Part shown: piece by piece, positions 21,475-30,270 of the stretch
How positions within the stretch are numbered: the first letter of the stretch is position 1
How the letters are laid out: every line of letters starts with the position of its first letter
DNA from: a bacterium
Lineage (GTDB): Bacteria; Electryoneota; JAOADG01
Assembly: GCA_963681965.1 (NCBI GenBank)
Contig: OY820579.1
Location: 1,568,001 to 1,632,000, forward strand
Reading direction: 5' to 3'
Length of the DNA stretch: 64,000 bases
The notes under the pieces: generated by a model
What the model was told of the DNA's origin: nothing
The model's database searches: none
The model's input: only the letters and a program-made list of their open reading frames with translations
Made by a program: the position numbers and the translations under genes

Positions 21475-22201
21475 ATCTTTCTCCTCTGAAAATCGCGCTA
21501 GTTTTGTTTGAACGCAGATAACAACACTAGGTTCCCAAGAAAATTTTGAACTCTACGGAAACAGAAAACCGCTTTCAATGATTAGATGTTATCGTCGATA
21601 AAATCGTTGCGTTTGTTGAATAACTCTTTCTAAAGGTGTGAACTGCAACACATGATTTCATCGGTTGTATCTTGTCAATTCATTAGTTCGATTTTGATCC
21701 TGATGAATATTTGTACCTATCCATATACCAGTTCTTCGCCGCGTAAAGCGAAAACATCAGGTTACATTCGATGGTCTTGAATACTGAAAATTCTCTAAAA
21801 AAATTCAATTAGTGCTGATCGGCTTGATTCGAAAGCTTTCGCTCGATGTGAATGATCGAGCTGTAAGTTTTTTCAATGAACTCGCTTAAATGGAATTAAA
21901 ACCGATAGATAGAGTGAATCAGTCACTCGTCACTAAAAGTACGGAAACCAGCATGCACTTTTGCTAGGATTATTGAAAATTTGTATTTTTTTTCTCATTC
22001 TAATTAAGTGTATGATTGGTATGAATTAAGATTGAATTTCGAAATTATGTATAGAATAAGGCAATGTGTTGCTATTCACATAATTTGCTCATAGATCGAA
22101 AAACGATTTTTATTTTTGCTTGTTTACAAATTGAGACACTTGTCAAAAATCGTTACATTATGCCGTCTAGTATTAGTTTGTTCAATCCTACGGAGATCAT
22201 T

Positions 22202-24388
22202 ATGAAGCAAAATGTTATCGTTGGCTTGGTGATGCTTCTTACAGTAGTATTGGCCGGATTAGGTTTTGCCTATCCGCGCACAGTACTAATGGAAGACTAC
22301 ACCAACTACTCTTGACCTTACTGCGCGACGGGTCATAATTGGCTCGTTCCATACCTTGCGGGGCAAGGTAGTGTCCAATACATCCAATATCACGAAAATT
22401 ATCCGGGTCCCAATGATCCGTGGTATCTCGCCAATACTCCTCAAGCCGATTCATTGCGTTCCACTTATGGCGTAACCGGTTACCCGACTTATGCGATTGA
22501 TGGTACGACGATTGTCGGATTCGGTCTCTCATCGACTCCCAACACGATCACAACCCGAGTTAATACCCGGTTGGCGATTGCGTCACCAGTGTGGTTGAAG
22601 GTATCGATGGATCCGACCACGAACGATACGATTATCGTGACAGTAAAGGCTGTGGCGAGTTCAGCGATTACGAACAGCTCGCTGAAGATTTACTTGACCG
22701 AAACCCTGGAAACATGGGCAACCCCGGCACCGAATGGTGTGAACCGTTGGGAATTCCCGTTCGTATCGGCTTCACCCTCGGTAGCCGGAATTGCATTTAC
22801 CCATACCGGTACTACGACCGATACACTGACCTTTACCGCCCGGTTTGCACCACGAAGAACTGGTACGGAACCTTATAACAAGGATAGTTGCAGCGTGATT
22901 GCATTCGTGCAGAATAATACTTCACACGAAGTATACCAGTCTGCCCGATGCCACACCATCGTGTCACCGACCAATAACCGAACCTATTTGATCGGTACTG
23001 CACTCCCGATTATCTGGAATCCATACTATACTACCGACATCATGAACATTCTGATCAATCGGAGTTATCCGTCTGGCACTTGGGACACCATCGCTGCCAA
23101 TATTCCGAACTCAGGATATTTCGATTGGACTGCTACCGGACCGATCACCTACAACGCGCGTCTACTGGTGAAATCGACAACGCATCCGCTCAATGTCGAT
23201 ACTTCGATCATCACGATAACCAGTAATACTACTTTGCAAGTGTCACCGAATCCTATTTCGATGACTGTCGCTGCTGGCGATACAGTGCGTACTAACGTAC
23301 TGATCTCGAACAATGGGAGCGCGCCGTTTACCGGTACGCTTGCCGCGACTACTGGATCACTAGGTTATACTTCACTCTCTTCATCACAAGCGTATGGTCC
23401 TGAAGTAGGCTGGTACGACACGGAAGCCGGGGATCCGGGAGCGCACGGCGACGATTCATTATCGGGACCTTATGTGCTGCCATTCAGATTCCCGTTCTAC
23501 GGTACGAATTATACCAACGTCTATATGTGCACCAACGGATATCTCTGCTTCTCAACGGCAGTTGGAGCGTTGTATACAAATGCATCGCTTCCATCCGGTT
23601 ATCCGATGATTTGCCCGTACTGGGACGACTTTGTCGTTAGCGGTACGGCTGTTACCCAAGTCTATGTAGATGCCGATAGTGGTTATGCCATTTTCTCTTG
23701 GCAGAATGTGCCGCGATACGTGACAAGTGGTTCAGGTGGTAACTTCAATTTTGAAGCGATCCTTCGTTCCGACGGTACAGTTGAATTCCAGTATGATGTG
23801 TTAACTGGAACCCTCAACTCGGCTACAATCGGTATTTCGAATGGTACCATTGCCACGCAGGTGATTTACAATCAGACTGCCACGCAGTACTTCGCATACA
23901 AATTCACTCCCGGTGTGATTTGGTCGTCACCAAGTACTACGGTGTTGAGCATTCCGGTCGGTCAGAGCCAAACGATCAGCACACTGTTTGACGCGCGGCG
24001 GTTGACTGCCGGTCAGACATTGAATGGTACATGGGTGATCACAGGTAACATGGCAGCTTCGATTACCGTGCCAGTTTCTATTATCACTACCGCGACTGGC
24101 GTTGCTGAAAACGGAGCAATGGTTCATCGTTACAATCTTGAAAATGCATATCCCAATCCGTTTAACCCGACAACATCGATTCGCTACGAGATTCCGCGTG
24201 CCGATCGAGTTGTGCTGAAACTATACGACAGTAACGGTCGATTGGTCGAAACACTGTTTGATGGAACCAGCATTGCGGGGAAACATACTCAAATGATCGA
24301 TGCAACCAAGCTTGCATCGGGTATGTATTTTGTCAAGATGAATTCTGGCAATTTTAACGCTACTAAGAAAATTATGTTAGTGAAGTAA
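22202..24388 (+). CDS. Secreted Omp28/thioredoxin-fold protein with T9SS type A-like C-terminal domain; probable selenoprotein (in-frame TGA 22313-22315, codon 38)
   Basis: GGAG RBS, signal peptide, VLMEDYTNYS-TGA-PYC, then an unbroken frame (YH..DPW..YGVTGYPTYAIDG) joining the 22454 ORF; C-terminal YPNPFNPTT..LASGMYF..TKKIMLVK. Confidence 0.85.
22327..22370 (+). promoter_or_regulatory. Candidate SECIS hairpins downstream of the in-frame UGA
   Basis: GACGGGTCA-TAAT-TGGCTCGTT (22327-22348, with G-U pairs) and TACCTTGC-GGG-GCAAGGTA (22352-22370). Confidence 0.45.
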
Positions 24389-24405: not shown

Positions 24406-24441
24406 AAAAAAACGGAACCTCAGTGAGGTTCCGTTTTTTTT
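24406..24441. terminator. Bidirectional intrinsic terminator
   Basis: A-run-CGGAACCTCA-G-TGAGGTTCCG-T-run between convergent genes. Confidence 0.9.
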
Positions 24442-24665: not shown

Positions 24666-25328
24666 TCAGCACCCTTCCTTTTTCTTCTTGCCGCCACTTG
24701 CTGCTGGTGCGGATGAACCACCACCACTTGGCATCGGCTTCGGAGGTTCCATTTTCGGAGTTGTGGCTGGATTGCTTCCGGTTTGTGGAGTTCCACCGAA
24801 GAACTTACTCACTTCGCTCATTTTAGTGAATTCTGATTGTTGTTGTGTCGTTGCATTCACCGCAATCTTTGGAAATAAGATACGGTCATTCCACTCTTCC
24901 AGACCTCCGAAAAGAATATAGACCGCTTTATATCCTTTCGACCGCAGTAGGAACCATGCTTGTGCCGAATGGATCCCCCCTTCGGAATAAAGTACGAGCT
25001 TCTCAGTATGCGAGAAATTAGCGTCGGTAATTTTCGCCGTCGGAATATTCTCGGAAGTCGGAATGTGATAGTCACGGTATTCTTGTTCCGATCGCAGATC
25101 GATCAATCGGTAGTCTGCACTCCTCTTCATTATCCAATCGGTGAGTTCGGTTACATCGATATGATCGACTTTGTTGTCTACTATCATTGCCAGTTCTTTT
25201 GCATCGATTGTTACCGAAGTACCGTGATAAGGATTTCCCGCAAATACCGCCAATAATCCCAAAGTAAAAGCTAATAGCGCGAGTTTACGGTTGCGTGAAA
25301 GCGATTTCCAGAAAGTCATTTTGACCAT
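24666..25328 (-). CDS. Membrane-anchored rhodanese-like protein with C-terminal EGC tail
   Basis: LIDLRSEQEY..YHIP, LVLYSEGG, ILFGGLEEW; Pro/Gly linker ending KKKKEGC. Confidence 0.82.
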   Translation of the reverse strand: MVKMTFWKSLSRNRKLALLAFTLGLLAVFAGNPYHGTSVTIDAKELAMIVDNKVDHIDVTELTDWIMKRSADYRLIDLRSEQEYRDYHIPTSENIPTAKITDANFSHTEKLVLYSEGGIHSAQAWFLLRSKGYKAVYILFGGLEEWNDRILFPKIAVNATTQQQSEFTKMSEVSKFFGGTPQTGSNPATTPKMEPPKPMPSGGGSSAPAASGGKKKKEGC

Positions 25329-25346
25329 CCTTGTAGCTATCGAAGA

Positions 25347-25937
25347 TTATTTCGCAAATTTATTTTCGACCCATTCCGCACCGGCAAAACCACCAATCGC
25401 CATGAGGACTACAGCGAATACTAGTACTCCGTAAGGGATATTGAGTAGCTGCGATAAGGTGATTTGTCCCATCGAAGTCGAATTGTAGAACGATTCCAAC
25501 ATCGGGAACATTTCACCGAAAACGAATATTCCGAAGAATATTCCCAGCAGATAAATCATCCCATCGATTTTTCCCGTTGCTGCTGCAACGCATGATGTAC
25601 CTGGACAATATCCACCAATCACGAATCCAATACCGAGTATCAATCCACCGATCGTCTGAGGAAGGATGTATGTAGGTGTCAAATACACTTGCGATAAATC
25701 CATGAAGCCGATCCACGAGAGCCAGAAAATGCCCAGCATCGCAGTAATGATTGCGGTAAACATTACTTTGAATACGGTCAAGTCGGTAAAGTAGAATTGA
25801 GCAGCTAACTTACGACCACTGCCGAATCCGGCGCGTTCCAGAAAGAAACCGAAACCAATTCCGATAGCAAATGCGAGAATTAAACTAACTTCATCGTTGA
25901 ACATTCCGAATTTGTAAAAGGGTGCGTTCATTTCCAC
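25347..25937 (-). CDS. YeeE/YedE sulfur-compound transporter family (half protein)
   Basis: GIGFGFFLERAGFG, GGYCPGTS. Confidence 0.85.
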   Translation of the reverse strand: MEMNAPFYKFGMFNDEVSLILAFAIGIGFGFFLERAGFGSGRKLAAQFYFTDLTVFKVMFTAIITAMLGIFWLSWIGFMDLSQVYLTPTYILPQTIGGLILGIGFVIGGYCPGTSCVAAATGKIDGMIYLLGIFFGIFVFGEMFPMLESFYNSTSMGQITLSQLLNIPYGVLVFAVVLMAIGGFAGAEWVENKFAK

Positions 25938-26494
25938 TGTCTCCTCATGAAGTATGCCATCGCATAAGCACCGGTAAATACCATCATCATAAACGACCAG
26001 CTCCCGACATTCAGTACCGATCCGCCGGTGAGTGCTTGTCCGCTAGTACATCCCCGTGCCAACTTGGCTCCGAATCCCATCAGCGAACCGCCGATGAACG
26101 CAAAAATCAATCGTCCGGCAATCGAGATATGCGGTCCTTTCTCGACTCCTTTCCGTACCCGATTGGCTAATACACCCGAGAAAAATCCTCCGACAAACAC
26201 GCCCAACACCTCGAATACCAACCAATCTTTGAATGGGCTTTTCGATCCGTCACCGAGGTACTCGGAATAGAATCCATTACCGGAAGCATGAGCAGGCGCT
26301 AGTTTACTGATCGTTACCGAGGTGGCGGTCGAGAATGCACCGGAGGCTCCCAAGCCGCGACCCATGATGACATAGGAAAGCAATAGCACTAACCCCAAAC
26401 CGATTCCGGCGAGATAAGGATTCCAATACGGTTGAGCGACTCGTTCGACAGTCGTCTTAATAGTACTGGTAGTAGTTGTCGTTGATGAAGCCAT
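25928..26494 (-). CDS. YeeE/YedE sulfur-compound transporter family (half protein)
   Basis: YWNPYLAG, GLGASG, GAKLARGCTSGQALTG. Confidence 0.85.
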   Translation of the reverse strand: MASSTTTTTSTIKTTVERVAQPYWNPYLAGIGLGLVLLLSYVIMGRGLGASGAFSTATSVTISKLAPAHASGNGFYSEYLGDGSKSPFKDWLVFEVLGVFVGGFFSGVLANRVRKGVEKGPHISIAGRLIFAFIGGSLMGFGAKLARGCTSGQALTGGSVLNVGSWSFMMMVFTGAYAMAYFMRRQWK

Positions 26495-26536
26495 ATCATT
26501 GCTCCCGCGATGTATCGCGATAGATGATTCCTGATA

Positions 26537-27511
26537 TTAATGAAATAAATTTACATGATTGTGTATTGTGTTGATCCAGCTACTCTGCTGCCCGGCAGAT
26601 ACAATAATGAATCGTAAAAATAGACCGCCTAATATTACCGTGACCGGTGCAATTGCTGTATGATTCACTTTGTGATTGACTGCAAGCAACTGAATAATGA
26701 GTGGAATGACAATACCTATTCCCACCACGAGCACCCAAAATGGTGCAGCAAACGAACCATTCAACAATAAATGTGCTGCGGCTTGATGAGCCTGTGTCGA
26801 ACTGAGCAATCCTATCAGATAAAGACCCAATACAATCAATTCGAAAATTAAAAAACCATTGTCGGCTTTCGCCAGTAACTCCCGTTCGGATTTCAAACTG
26901 GCAATCATGTGTACAAGTGCTGCTGCCGACGAAAGTCCGGATACGAGGAACAACACCCAGAGCATGGCGCTGTTCCATAACGGGCGCGCTCCGAACGCAC
27001 TTAATAAAATCCCGGTATAAATACCCAATGCTGCCCCGATCAGCATATTTCCGACTGCCAGCCACCGGATCGAAGCCGGAGAAGATAGTTTCGCTGAAAG
27101 CGTATCGAGAATTGGAAACAGTTTGCGAATTGATTTTGGAAAATGGTCATGGACGTTCATGAGTACTGTTCCAATCAGAATTGGATACACCAGTAGCAGA
27201 ATCCATGCACCCCACGACATCGGCGATGTGGGTTGAAAGGTGGTATACAGTTGCCAGACATACCATTTGTGTTCGAGATCCAGAAACAATGCAAACATAC
27301 CGACACTTATCAACGCCAGTGATAGTAATGGTAAATGAAAACAGCTTGTCTTGCTTGCCTTGTCGCGACCGCTGAGTAAAAAATATCCGGAGATGATCAT
27401 AATTCCGGCAACCAATCCACCTAGAAATAGGTAGACCGGTATCTGCCAATCCCAGATCCCAAGCATCGGATCGATATGAGGATTATGACGGGTGAATGTC
27501 AATTCGTGCAT
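26537..27511 (-). CDS. psrC: NrfD/PsrC-family membrane anchor
   Basis: WQIPVYLFLGGLVAG, SPMSWGAW, YTGILL..RPLWNS, GGLFLRFII. Confidence 0.88.
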   Translation of the reverse strand: MHELTFTRHNPHIDPMLGIWDWQIPVYLFLGGLVAGIMIISGYFLLSGRDKASKTSCFHLPLLSLALISVGMFALFLDLEHKWYVWQLYTTFQPTSPMSWGAWILLLVYPILIGTVLMNVHDHFPKSIRKLFPILDTLSAKLSSPASIRWLAVGNMLIGAALGIYTGILLSAFGARPLWNSAMLWVLFLVSGLSSAAALVHMIASLKSERELLAKADNGFLIFELIVLGLYLIGLLSSTQAHQAAAHLLLNGSFAAPFWVLVVGIGIVIPLIIQLLAVNHKVNHTAIAPVTVILGGLFLRFIIVSAGQQSSWINTIHNHVNLFH

Positions 27512-27521
27512 CGATTTCTCC

Positions 27522-28061
27522 TCACATCAGGTAGAATATTTGTGGTTGCGTTCCCGCTTCCGGAAGCACCGTGTGGTTCTTATGTGCCGCGATCAAACGG
27601 CTAACTTCGCTATGCGGATCCTCGAAATCTCCGAACGTCATACAATGTGTCGGACAAACCGAAACACACGCAGGATCTTTCGCATCCTCGATCCGGTGCA
27701 CACAGAACGTACATTTATCGGCATACCCGTCGGGGTGAATAAACCGGGCATCGTATGGACAAGCTGCCATACATGCTTTACAACCGATACACTGTTCATG
27801 TGTGACCAAAACGATGCCGCCACGTTCGTGGACATGACTCGCGCCAGTCGGACAGCAATACACACACGGAGGATTGTCGCAGTGATTGCAGCGCTCACTC
27901 CGTAATTCCATCGATAACGTCGGAAATTTTCCAGTAACATCTTGTGTCAGCCAATCCCGATCGTATCCTTCGGGAACCCGGTTTTCGGTTTTGCAGGCTG
28001 CCACGCAATCCATACAACTGACGCATTTACGGGTGTCGATCACCATTCCCAGACGGCTCAT
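27522..28061 (-). CDS. psrB: 4Fe-4S dicluster subunit of polysulfide/thiosulfate reductase
   Basis: CVSCMDCVAAC, CNHCDNPPCVYCCP, CIGCKACMAACP, KCTFC..CVSVCP. Confidence 0.9.
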   Translation of the reverse strand: MSRLGMVIDTRKCVSCMDCVAACKTENRVPEGYDRDWLTQDVTGKFPTLSMELRSERCNHCDNPPCVYCCPTGASHVHERGGIVLVTHEQCIGCKACMAACPYDARFIHPDGYADKCTFCVHRIEDAKDPACVSVCPTHCMTFGDFEDPHSEVSRLIAAHKNHTVLPEAGTQPQIFYLM

Positions 28062-28062
28062 C

Positions 28063-30270
28063 TTATACCCCCGATTCGATCGTTACAAAGTTGACGTTCA
28101 TCCCGGTTCCACCCATCAGTGGGTCAGTCGCGTACCGTGTAATCAATTGCGAATCGCTGGCTCCCTTTCCGAATGCATGACGCAATCGTCTGGAAGTGTG
28201 TCCGAATCCGTGAACCATGTACACGCAGTCCGGTCGAATCCGCTCGGTTGCTTTCACGCGAATCTTATTTGACAGCACACCATCTTGATTCTTCAGTTTC
28301 ACGTAATCGCCGCTTTTCAAATCCAATCGATTCGCTACATCATTATTGATCCAGATCTCATTTTCCGGCATCATATCGGAGAGAATTCGATTCGTTTGCG
28401 TCCGACCAAACGAGTGCATCGGCGCACGTCCATACAATAATCGGAATGAACCCGGTGGTGGTTCGACTGGGCGTTTATATTTCGGAACCGGATCGAATCC
28501 CGCTTGTTGCAACTGAACGGAATAGAACTCGATCTTTCCGGATGGTGTGTCGAATATCGGTGGAACCCCTTCTTCGTAATAATTCGGTTGCTTAGCACCG
28601 CGGATAATTCCGCTTTCTTTCAATGCCGCAAGCGAATAACCACCTTTTTTCAGACGGGAATCGAGATATTCCTCGATATCCTGCCACGGGAAATAATTAC
28701 CCAACCCCAATCGATTTGCCAACTGCTTGGCGATCCACCAATTCGGTTTTTGGTCGTCAGGCGACTTTACTACTGGTTGTCGTAGGGCGATAAATGGATC
28801 GCGGAACCATTCCACATTCAGATCGTCGTACCGTTCGAGATAGACCGATTCTGGCAATACGACATCGGCCCAACCTGCGATCTCACTCGGAACCACGTCG
28901 ATCACGACCAGCAAATCAAGTTGCTTGATCGCTTCGATCGTTGCTTTCTCATTGGGTAATGCACTCATCAAATTGGTGGCATAAACCATCCACCCCTTGA
29001 TCGGATAAGGTTTGCCGCTGATTGTCGCTTCGCGAATTCCAGTCGTTATCGATTCGTGTGCAAAGGGGTATTTGTTTCCCGGATTGTCAACTTTTGCCTT
29101 TTCTGAATGAGGGTAGGGAGGGTAGGGATAACCGGGCAATTCCATACTTACCGGTGTAAAGAAGCTCCCTTTGCGTCCCCAGCTTCCGAGCAGTGCATTG
29201 AGCAGTGCAATTGCCCGACTCCGTTGCGCATCGTCGCCGTACCATGTCGCATGTCGACCCGGATGAACTAGTGTTGCCGGCTTGTGTTGCGCCATTGCCC
29301 GCGCGGTTTCACGAATCGTTTCCGGATCGATATTTGTTTCGGGGTATGCCCATTCTGGCGTGTAAGGGGCAATTTCCGCAGCGAAATTCTCAAAGCCGAA
29401 ACCGTACTTCTTCACATATTCTTCATCGTACAGTTTCTCACGCACTATTGTGTTCATCCAAGCCAATAGCAGTGCGAGATCGGTTCCCGGTTTGATGGGA
29501 AGATACCACTTCGCCTTGCTCGCTGCGATAGAAAAACGGGGATCGGCAACAATGATTGTCGCGCCATTATCGATTGCCTCGGCGAATTCTTGTACCTGAC
29601 TATTGTGCATATTTTCGCCGAGATGAGAACCGAGCAGGACAATGCACTTTGAATATTTGATATCGGTGCGTTCCGGTGATCCGACATCTTCGCCGAATGT
29701 CAAGCGGAATCCGACATCCCGAGGTCCCCGGCACTGAGCAAACGATGGAGCGGTGATATTGGGTGAACCGTACGCCTTGATGAGGTGTTTTAGAAAATTT
29801 CCACCGATACCGTGACTGAATAGCGCAACCGATTCTGGTCCAAAGCTAGACTTGATCGTTTTCATTTTATCGGCGATGAAGTTCAGTGCTTCATCCCAAG
29901 TTACTTCCACCCACTCTTCGTTTCCGCGAACACTTTTCCGCAATAGCGGTGCTTTCAATCGGTCTGGATCGCTTTGCGCACCGACTCCGCCAGTACCACG
30001 AGGACATAGCCTTCCATTACTCAGTGGATCTAAAGGATTACCTTCCAGTTTCCACAATTTTCCATTTTCTACGGATGCAATGGCACCACATTTCCAGAAA
30101 CAGATATCGCAGAATGTGGGAATTCGCTGAATGCGGTCGGAAGGTTTTCCTTCAAGGGCGAAGGCTAGATCACCGAAAAGGCGGGTGGGCTGCATTACTT
30201 TTGCTGCAGCAGCTACCCCGATCGCGGTCGATGAAATTTGTAGGAATCTTCGTCGAGAAATTGAATCCAT
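28063..30270 (-). CDS. psrA: Tat-exported molybdopterin oxidoreductase, PsrA/PhsA family
   Basis: SRRRFLQ Tat motif, CDICFWKC..LCPRG FS0 cluster, SFAQCRGPR Cys ligand region, ADVVLPESVYLER, HGFGH. Confidence 0.88.
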   Translation of the reverse strand: MDSISRRRFLQISSTAIGVAAAAKVMQPTRLFGDLAFALEGKPSDRIQRIPTFCDICFWKCGAIASVENGKLWKLEGNPLDPLSNGRLCPRGTGGVGAQSDPDRLKAPLLRKSVRGNEEWVEVTWDEALNFIADKMKTIKSSFGPESVALFSHGIGGNFLKHLIKAYGSPNITAPSFAQCRGPRDVGFRLTFGEDVGSPERTDIKYSKCIVLLGSHLGENMHNSQVQEFAEAIDNGATIIVADPRFSIAASKAKWYLPIKPGTDLALLLAWMNTIVREKLYDEEYVKKYGFGFENFAAEIAPYTPEWAYPETNIDPETIRETARAMAQHKPATLVHPGRHATWYGDDAQRSRAIALLNALLGSWGRKGSFFTPVSMELPGYPYPPYPHSEKAKVDNPGNKYPFAHESITTGIREATISGKPYPIKGWMVYATNLMSALPNEKATIEAIKQLDLLVVIDVVPSEIAGWADVVLPESVYLERYDDLNVEWFRDPFIALRQPVVKSPDDQKPNWWIAKQLANRLGLGNYFPWQDIEEYLDSRLKKGGYSLAALKESGIIRGAKQPNYYEEGVPPIFDTPSGKIEFYSVQLQQAGFDPVPKYKRPVEPPPGSFRLLYGRAPMHSFGRTQTNRILSDMMPENEIWINNDVANRLDLKSGDYVKLKNQDGVLSNKIRVKATERIRPDCVYMVHGFGHTSRRLRHAFGKGASDSQLITRYATDPLMGGTGMNVNFVTIESGV

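Follow-up and report, generated by a model that had tools for sequence, protein, structure and literature searches.

An in-frame TGA in a thioredoxin/Omp28-like gene of an Electryoneota bacterium points to an exported selenoprotein with a type IX secretion tail

Does the TGA that interrupts a long reading frame on contig OY820579.1 (assembly GCA_963681965.1) end a gene, or is it read as selenocysteine (Sec) within a secreted protein? The question arises in a window of 64,000 nucleotides, the whole stretch of DNA analyzed here (positions 1,568,001 to 1,632,000 of the contig). A preliminary description of this window, made from its letters alone, had proposed a hidden secreted selenoprotein combining an Omp28/thioredoxin fold, a U-P-Y-C active site, and a tail of the T9SS (type IX secretion system). 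The host belongs to Electryoneota, a candidate phylum of the Fibrobacterota-Chlorobiota-Bacteroidota (FCB) group, with relatives that include Ca. Electryonea clarkiae, Ca. Hatepunaea meridiana, and "Calditrichaeota bacterium AABM5.125.24." Our comparisons indicate that the gene is very probably a genuine Sec-decoded one. The locus as a whole is best explained, with good probability, as encoding an exported, T9SS-tailed selenoprotein that would perform thiol/selenol-disulfide exchange at the cell surface.

The frame runs from position 22202 to 24388 of the window on the forward strand and comprises 728 codons. Direct translation with TGA read as U shows one internal stop only, codon 38 (22313-22315), and this single TGA sits within the motif E-x-Y-T-x-x-x-U-x-x-C. 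A mechanical list of open reading frames (ORFs) breaks the gene into 22064..22315 and 22454..24388, two pieces in the same frame, as the preliminary description had recognized. The start codon, the GGAG preceding it, and the TGA all lie where that description had placed them, with no other stop in the frame, and translation reproduces both its reading, VLMEDYTNYS-U-PYC...YH...DPW...YGVTGYPTYAIDG, and its length of 728 amino acids (aa). Two other in-frame ATGs occur 5' of 22202, at 22064 and 22160; we consider ATG 22202 the best start because it corresponds to the first codon of a paralog with 75% identity, whose putative signal peptide likewise ends in the junction GFA-YPR. The N-terminus preceding this shared junction is hydrophobic. 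The gene was also said to be followed by its own terminator, and a strong hairpin with a T-run is indeed present at approximately 24406-24441; a consensus promoter/terminator scan of the window did not flag this hairpin. The elements that bear on start, decoding, and termination are as follows.

22192..22195, forward strand: Shine-Dalgarno-like GGAG, 6 nt 5' of the start (sequence reading).
22202..22270, forward strand: start codon and putative signal peptide (MKQNVIVGLVMLLTVVLAGLGFA, then YPR), without a lipobox Cys (translation; GFA-YPR junction of the paralog).
22313..22315, forward strand: in-frame TGA, very probably read as selenocysteine U38 (column shared by 49/49 TGA homologs; Sec machinery).
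22327..22348, forward strand: candidate selenocysteine insertion sequence (SECIS), a 9-bp hairpin GACGGGUCA / UAAU / UGGCUCGUU, starting 14 nt after the U of UGA (folds, stem pairing).
22354..22368, forward strand: second hairpin, CCUUGC-GGG-GCAAGG (read from folds).
24386..24388, forward strand: stop codon TAA (sequence reading).
~24406..24441, forward strand: intrinsic terminator composed of an A-run, CGGAACCUC-AGU-GAGGUUCCG, and a run of eight U (fold; minimum free energy of the region, -21.3 kcal/mol).

The most frequent selenoproteins are thioredoxin-fold proteins that carry a UxxC motif and have homologs with Cys. To place the TGA among its homologs, the first 260 residues, with stops read through, were used as the search query (the module, hereafter). 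The module was matched in 39 of 41 genomes of the same phylum, and by hand count 35 of the 90 match rows carried exactly one TGA (33 full length and 2 short). Across 73 aligned rows, the U38 column reads U in 33 rows (from 32 distinct loci), C in 38, and S in one, the last row being truncated, and the Cys three residues after it is present in 72/72 aligned copies. A profile search of 79 phylum genomes, which gave 150 rows listed and 10 further unlisted ones, found the module in 73 genomes; 49 of the 150 rows listed carry one TGA (hand count), and these come from 27 genomes in six of nine families. The TGA falls in the first-Cys column in all 49 TGA copies checked (32, plus locus L068, plus 16 from separate batches), a check outside which lie 15 of the 55 "none" rows and two short TGA rows (G021:C46, C22) of the 41-genome search, together with the 10 unlisted rows of the 79-genome search. 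With 49/49 copies agreeing on the column, neither a nonsense mutation nor a sequencing error can account for the TGA. Furthermore, contigs from four public runs belonging to two studies span the codon with zero differing letters, two of these runs possibly being the source of the assembly itself. Cys homologs (38 aligned copies) and independent genomes keeping the TGA (27), both named in the preliminary description as the support to be sought, are therefore on record, the codon holds in contigs beyond the assembly as far as the source of the runs allows, and the comparative data support its reading of a hidden selenoprotein with a UxxC motif.

Some diversity exists around the active site. Among the 16 TGA rows added later, 14 read UxxC. 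The other two are variant sites in the U38 column, found at loci L197 (G378:C227) and L200 (G355:C17): one is U-G-P-N-C, with one extra residue, and the other is a C-U dipeptide followed by GGS, without a downstream Cys.

The means to decode the codon are present in the host, whose genome is one 4.24-Mb contig with tRNA-Sec, selA, selB, and selD; all four components (selA/selB/selC/selD) that had been singled out for checking were thus recovered. The tRNA-SeC, with anticodon tca, was found by aragorn at G000:C1:2414708-2414803 (reverse strand), and selD (336.7 bits), selA (481.4 bits), and selB (363.6 bits) all score over their curated cutoffs. Within the phylum, selA was detected in 74 of 79 genomes and in 26 of the 27 with TGA forms, a co-occurrence that discriminates weakly because so many genomes have the gene. 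The four selA-negative genomes other than the single TGA-bearing one contain Cys forms only. The host selD gene (G000:C1:4177383-4178309, reverse strand) has one in-frame TGA itself, so SelD is probably a selenoprotein in this bacterium. Additionally, approximately 1.4 kb separate the closest Sec paralog (2412435-2413208) from the tRNA-Sec gene, which lies upstream of it on the same strand; this nearness is probably incidental, since a short-chain dehydrogenase/reductase gene and a glyoxalase-family gene intervene.

Structure in the mRNA downstream of the codon separates the two forms of the family. In Sec copies, but not in Cys copies of the same clade, a hairpin begins at a distance of 12-15 nt from the UGA. 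The mean fold energy of the 36 nt from +10 is -11.2 kcal/mol in 32 Sec copies versus -7.1 in 39 Cys/Ser copies, a comparison whose significance is overstated because related sequences are not independent. Three clade-specific types of SECIS-like hairpin can be distinguished, with the present gene in clade a. Canonical stem pairs in Sec versus same-clade Cys copies amount to 46/56 versus 18/35 in clade a, 56/77 versus 3/28 in clade b, and 72/80 versus 12/24 in clade c, where it is important to consider that the stem positions were defined on the same sequences, so these proportions lean toward structure. Compensatory switches occur at single pairs: TA five times, AT twice, GC twice, and CG once in clade c; GC seven times and CG twice at one clade b pair; and AT twice and TA twice at one clade a pair. 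The hairpin of this gene spans +14 to +35 after the UGA, a position and size that presumably fit bacterial SECIS elements. Judging from these folds, the hairpin probably guides decoding of the UGA as a bacterial-type SECIS. For the second hairpin (22354-22368), an uncounted reading of folds shows counterparts of different sequence in the majority of clade a and clade b Sec copies; none was seen in clade c, and one is present in the Cys copy L018.

The stretch upstream of the TGA evolves as part of a protein. Compared with the paralog at G000:C1:2412435-2413208, the ratio of nonsynonymous to synonymous substitution rates (dN/dS, omega) is 0.25 for codons 1-37 (dS 0.75) and 0.14 for the 222 codons 39-260 (dS 1.32). 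Purifying selection thus acts on both sides of the codon, a comparison that the preliminary description had proposed, and the omega of 0.25 upstream of the TGA identifies the 5' piece as coding sequence under constraint. The suspicion that standard annotation misses such genes was likewise well founded, as the protein collection holds only N-truncated calls of this gene and its paralog, of 593 aa and 622 aa. The signal peptide and the active site are systematically dropped from the gene calls of the family, and since the catalytic N-terminus is lost in this way, surface proteomes and selenoproteomes would be undercounted.

A related pattern was observed farther afield. Among the best 150 of 16,946 profile matches, 11 begin at residue 1-3 of the protein but at profile position 15-42, just past the active-site column (P0025, P0029, P0050, P0052, P0055, P0075, P0093, P0096, P0119, P0138, and P0151). 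This hints that gene callers may have cut off other Sec forms too, although the 11 could equally be fragments at contig edges.

What kind of protein emerges once the codon is read through? The AlphaFold2 (AF2) model of the N-terminal module, built on a 71-sequence alignment, is confident (predicted local distance difference test [pLDDT] 91.6; predicted TM score [pTM] 0.89) and consists of a thioredoxin fold followed by a beta-sandwich. In alignment numbering, its elements are E3-9, H14-28, E33-39, E71-74, E78-80, and H88-99, with U13 and C16 at the helix start. C16, H39, and P70 are invariant in the 71 sequences, and P70, a candidate cis-Pro, stands just before strand 3 in the model. The top Foldseek match of the module is HBP35 of Porphyromonas gingivalis (5y1a; E 1.1e-11, TMq 0.77), and profile matches were obtained with HBP35 (E 2.3e-6, positions 2-208) and with thioredoxin 1fo5 (E 3.5e-6). 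The Omp28 domain structure 2r2c was matched over the sandwich only (Foldseek E 1.6e-5, TMq 0.38). The thioredoxin/Omp28 pattern first noticed in the letters is therefore borne out by the fold, with the UxxC at helix 1. The domains of the whole protein are listed below.

22277..22576, forward strand: thioredoxin-fold subdomain, residues 26-125, in which helix 1 opens with U38-P-Y-C41 and the invariant Pro95 (alignment P70) precedes strand 3 (AF2, profile matches, Foldseek, invariant columns).
22589..22954, forward strand: Omp28-like beta-sandwich subdomain, residues ~130-251 (Pfam below cutoff, Foldseek 2r2c, AF2 model).
22979..24091, forward strand: string of all-beta passenger domains, residues ~260-630 (Pfam, moderate-confidence AF2 model).
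23516..23677, forward strand: NIDO-like stretch, residues 439-492 (Pfam NIDO, 28.4-32.2 bits versus a cutoff of 25).
24149..24376, forward strand: T9SS type A C-terminal sorting domain, residues 650-725 (PF18962, TIGR04183).

The C-terminal sorting domain scores over the cutoffs of two models, PF18962 (48.5 bits versus a cutoff of 27) and TIGR04183 (48.4 versus 23), and components of the T9SS machinery are found in the host genome, namely, SprA (SprA_N, 96 bits) and the sortase PorU (619.5 bits versus a cutoff of 420). The claim of a T9SS-type tail consequently stands. The architecture is shared widely: 57 of 62 complete homologs end in a T9SS domain, and 46 of the 62 match PF11551 at E <= 1e-4. 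Taken together, the domain content makes it likely that the protein is exported by the T9SS. The preliminary description had gone further in predicting a 728-aa exported selenoenzyme with beta domains; the frame, the beta domains, and the sorting domain agree with the data, and the term "selenoenzyme" goes beyond them, as an activity that we infer.

The region between the module and the tail is more variable. The middle domains differ among the 62 homologs, being LVIVD, CarboxypepD_reg, NIDO, or none, and in the present protein a Pfam search of residues 260-433 returned no family. A full-length AF2 model from an eight-sequence alignment (pLDDT 66, pTM 0.39) depicts the middle as a chain of beta-sandwiches; in that run the thioredoxin part has a pLDDT below 35. 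Foldseek with the full-length model returned generic multi-Ig-domain proteins at a TM of ~0.1, which is uninformative on the passenger domains. Most family members without NIDO share a conserved middle region of approximately 300 residues with no Pfam match at E <= 1e-4 (e.g., L023, L026, and L052), an uncharacterized passenger domain. In the host genome, sorting-domain-like tails that match the PorU model in its C-terminal part occur in about 50 other ORFs, and this number suggests a large T9SS secretome.

The distribution of the two forms was explored next to that of the fold. The module is very widespread: a profile search matched 16,946 cluster representatives at E <= 0.001, of which 2,118 reached E <= 1e-30, and Cys forms are found in Prevotella, Bacteroidales, Marinilabiliales, Lentimicrobium, Ignavibacterium, Chlorobiota, and Kapabacteria. 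Among 301 Bacteroidota genomes, 53 carry the module, and a TGA is found in 0 of their 83 matches, versus 49 of the 150 phylum rows listed. The Sec form is a lineage-enriched trait, as far as sampled. A ratio of 79 C to 1 U among 80 related loci was not used for distribution, since it is biased by one of the two search patterns, which fixes Cys at the key position. In a tree of 71 modules with the trait column masked, at least 12 changes between the Sec and Cys states are required, at least 7 of them on well-supported branches alone, and three clades are mostly Sec (8/13, 11/15, and 9/10 rows). The host genome itself contains three Sec members, this gene and two paralogs 75% and 45% identical to it, as well as one SxxC paralog. 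The paralog modules are located at G000:C1 2412435-2413208 (reverse strand), 316059-316781 (reverse strand), and 201720-202463 (forward strand) (L015, L016, and L017) in ORFs of approximately 750-830 aa.

With its 5' region on one side and the terminator on the other, the gene forms a unit by itself. Its upstream neighbors, on the reverse strand, are a cation-efflux gene, a DUF4097 gene, and a ribosome-hibernation-factor-like gene. On the other side, a Psr/Phs-like sulfur cluster occupies 24666-30270 (reverse strand), with a rhodanese, two half-length Sulf_transp ORFs (YeeE/YedE/PmpAB-type), NrfD, a 4Fe-4S protein, and a molybdopterin oxidoreductase. A similar cluster of Phs, PmpAB, and sulfurtransferase genes is described in the paper naming Ca. 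Electryoneota (PMC9324843). We do not propose a common function for the selenoprotein and this cluster because the sulfur genes are convergent with the selenoprotein gene.

These observations can be assembled into a proposed mechanism. The UGA at codon 38 would be decoded as selenocysteine by the host SelA, SelB, SelD, and tRNA-Sec, with the downstream hairpin acting as a bacterial-type SECIS. A signal peptide of the general secretory type would take the product across the inner membrane unfolded, and folding would follow in the periplasm. The T9SS would then carry the folded product through the outer membrane, where PorU would attach it to the surface or release it. There, U-P-Y-C would correspond to the CxxC site of thioredoxin, with Sec in the exposed position of the attacking residue, and the UxxC center would perform thiol/selenol-disulfide exchange on an extracellular substrate. 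By analogy with HBP35, the most likely role would be that of a surface-displayed selenol/thiol oxidoreductase, and a redox catalyst of the thioredoxin/glutaredoxin (Trx/Grx) type is somewhat favored over the other functions considered below. The motifs UPYC, in this protein, and UGPC, in close relatives, resemble reducing Grx/Trx motifs and not the DsbA type; this resemblance of the PY and GP dipeptides favors a reductase over an oxidase. Within this scheme, the continuity of the reading frame, the Sec/Cys homology, the decoding machinery, the SECIS-like structure, the fold, and the sorting domain are established by comparison, and the actual insertion of Sec, the export, the redox activity, and the substrate are proposed.

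Several findings weigh against this picture. In one TGA-bearing genome, G001, a selA search gave no match; this is a 720-contig draft in which selB is present in two contig-edge pieces. The candidate SECIS of the present gene is the least canonical of the set, since its UAAU loop has no G, which is present in the clade b and c loops, and its register is shifted relative to the closest relatives (six of seven canonical pairs form in the clade register); the two limits on the hairpin statistics given above point in the same direction. The module falls below the cutoffs of Pfam Omp28 (31.1 bits over residues 83-252 versus 34.9) and of NCBIfam NF033782 for Omp28 (32.4-36.1 bits versus 150). A search of the host genome with the GldM/PorM model (GldM_1st) returned no match, so the T9SS set is incomplete as tested, and nothing is apparent that would supply electrons to a surface reductase. 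Finally, a sigma-70-like match (TTGACC-16 nt-CATAAT, 10/12) at 22312-22339 on the forward strand overlaps the TGA and could drive a transcript of the downstream part only. Such a promoter would suit a true stop at 22313, with the downstream ORF expressed from an internal start as a surface protein lacking the thioredoxin active site and the 5' piece serving as a leader or a small peptide, and the 593-aa and 622-aa truncated calls, the only ones in the protein collection, would agree with it. The public sequencing runs listed for this sequence included none of RNA. Nevertheless, the paralog does not retain the promoter-like hexamers, and no weight is placed on promoter calls in this window, where 13 promoter-like sites were found versus 6.6 +/- 2.5 expected. 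The product of a downstream start would have no signal peptide and half a thioredoxin fold. The conserved motif straddles the TGA in 49/49 copies, Cys copies read straight through, the piece 5' of the TGA is under purifying selection, and the gene comes with a SECIS-like hairpin in a genome that has the complete Sec machinery; a true stop is accordingly very improbable. Even less credit can be given to a pseudogene or a sequencing error in which a Cys codon became TGA. The change from TGC or TGT is of a single base, and one paralog of the same genome has lost its first Cys (SxxC), but the same column carries TGA in 49 copies from 27 genomes, three TGA paralogs coexist in the host, the 728 codons contain no other stops or frameshifts, omega is 0.14-0.25, and contigs of several runs agree. 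The comparative data effectively refute this explanation.

If the gene is Sec-decoded, the function of its product can be debated on narrower grounds. The selenol/thiol pair and the invariant His could bind heme, a metal or metalloid, or sulfur/selenium species at the surface without redox turnover. HBP35 binds hemin and supports growth under hemin limitation, according to PMC2907840, and the profile alignment shows the invariant His (alignment H39) in HBP35 as well. Outside the cell, no source of electrons is apparent, and the gene adjoins the rhodanese, the PmpAB/YeeE-type sulfur transporter, and the Psr/Phs-like set, on the opposite strand and beyond the terminator. One relative has the C-U dipeptide without a downstream Cys, a motif that the preprint 10.1101/2022.07.06.499078 ties to heavy-metal chemistry. 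On the contrary, the second Cys of UxxC is invariant in the 72 aligned copies and has canonical thioredoxin geometry, which fits a redox couple and exceeds what a ligand site needs; HBP35 is itself thioredoxin active (PMC2907840); and the neighboring sulfur genes are convergent and not cotranscribed. Ligand capture is thus unlikely, and a foldase is more doubtful still. In the latter case, the protein would be a DsbA/DsbC-like oxidase or isomerase that folds T9SS cargo or its own passenger domains in the periplasm or at the surface. An hbp35 plasmid complemented E. coli dsbA defects (earlier work cited in PMC2907840), the protein transits the periplasm, and the roughly 50 host ORFs with sorting-domain-like tails would need folding. 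On the other side, the PY and GP dipeptides resemble the reducing type and not DsbA; it is not obvious why a foldase should require a T9SS anchor; and several paralogs per genome with different passenger domains better fit surface enzymes that target substrates. Surface thiol/selenol-disulfide exchange therefore continues to be the function that we prefer.

Selenocysteine is costly, and bacteria use it mostly inside the cell or in periplasmic respiratory enzymes. If our reading is true, a large T9SS-tailed family would mean that Sec is spent on surface or extracellular chemistry, an unusual bacterial use of this residue outside the cell envelope. A more ambitious idea, which we advance only tentatively, is that the phylum displays a whole Sec-enzyme family on its surface via the T9SS, with up to three Sec paralogs per genome here, varied passenger domains, extracellular selenol chemistry, and at least three lineage-specific SECIS types. 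Such surface Sec enzymes could, for example, reductively open disulfides of environmental proteins before proteolysis or handle polysulfide, selenium, or metal species. The changes between Sec and Cys (at least 12), together with the three hairpin types, constitute a natural experiment on SelB-SECIS recognition and on the retention of Sec versus its replacement.

Exported selenoproteins have been described before. Among the UxxC thioredoxin-fold and exported bacterial selenoproteins, of which SaoT, SaoB, and SaoC of the SAO system are examples, a thioredoxin-like protein carries a UXXC motif and has homologs with Cys, and some selenoproteins are exposed to the extracellular milieu, as stated in the preprint by Haft and Gwadz (10.1101/2022.07.06.499078), which also mentions database entries truncated at the UGA. 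The notion that extracellular selenoproteins are unusual therefore holds as to rarity and not as to precedent, since the exported SaoB and SaoC are on record in that preprint. The SAO selenoproteins are small proteins or transporter components of Firmicutes without a T9SS, in contrast to the 728-aa multidomain T9SS cargo of an FCB-group phylum found here. A literature search, judged from titles, abstracts, and listings, gave no description of T9SS-secreted selenoproteins; if true, these would be the first described within the literature searched. The main text of the Electryoneota paper (PMC9324843), whose supplements may list such genes as truncated T9SS proteins, contains no mention of selenocysteine, selenoprotein, or T9SS.

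Two curated families touch the module. NCBIfam NF045500, "Omp28-related selenoprotein" (Omp28_seleno, an equivalog_domain model), is a curated selenoprotein model on the same kind of module, and 62 of 71 phylum N-terminal modules match it weakly over model positions ~40-266 (best E 4.3e-17). The whole protein scores 18.0 bits and its module 21.2 bits versus a cutoff of 200, and none of the 71 modules comes near this value, so membership was rejected; a search with the model found no match in the host genome, and 0 of 301 Bacteroidota genomes exceeded the cutoff. No paper pairing Omp28 with a selenoprotein appeared in the literature search. The Omp28 lipoprotein family (PF11551, NF033782, 2r2c) matches the beta-sandwich half of the module; 2r2c covers this half only, the putative signal peptide of the present protein has no lipobox Cys, and assignment to the family was set aside on the curated cutoffs (31.1 versus 34.9 bits; 32.4-36.1 versus 150 bits).

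The closest known counterpart is HBP35, the 35-kDa hemin-binding protein of P. gingivalis (5y1a), for which a literature search gave no paper linking it with selenocysteine. Both proteins have a signal peptide (putative in the present one), a thioredoxin fold with xxC in the same place, an Omp28-like sandwich, and a T9SS C-terminal domain. HBP35 differs in having Cys instead of Sec and in its length of 344 aa, its module being followed by the sorting domain without intervening passenger domains, and its sequence identity to the module is only ~16%. According to PMC2907840, HBP35 reduces insulin in a dithiothreitol-dependent manner, an activity lost in C48S/C51S, and its surface attachment requires the C-terminal domain. 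HBP35 thus offers a tractable Cys analog for studies of function. Compared with these systems, the protein encoded at this locus is not a new kind of system; it is a probable surface thioredoxin of the HBP35/Omp28 type using Sec, expanded in one candidate phylum and miscalled in databases.

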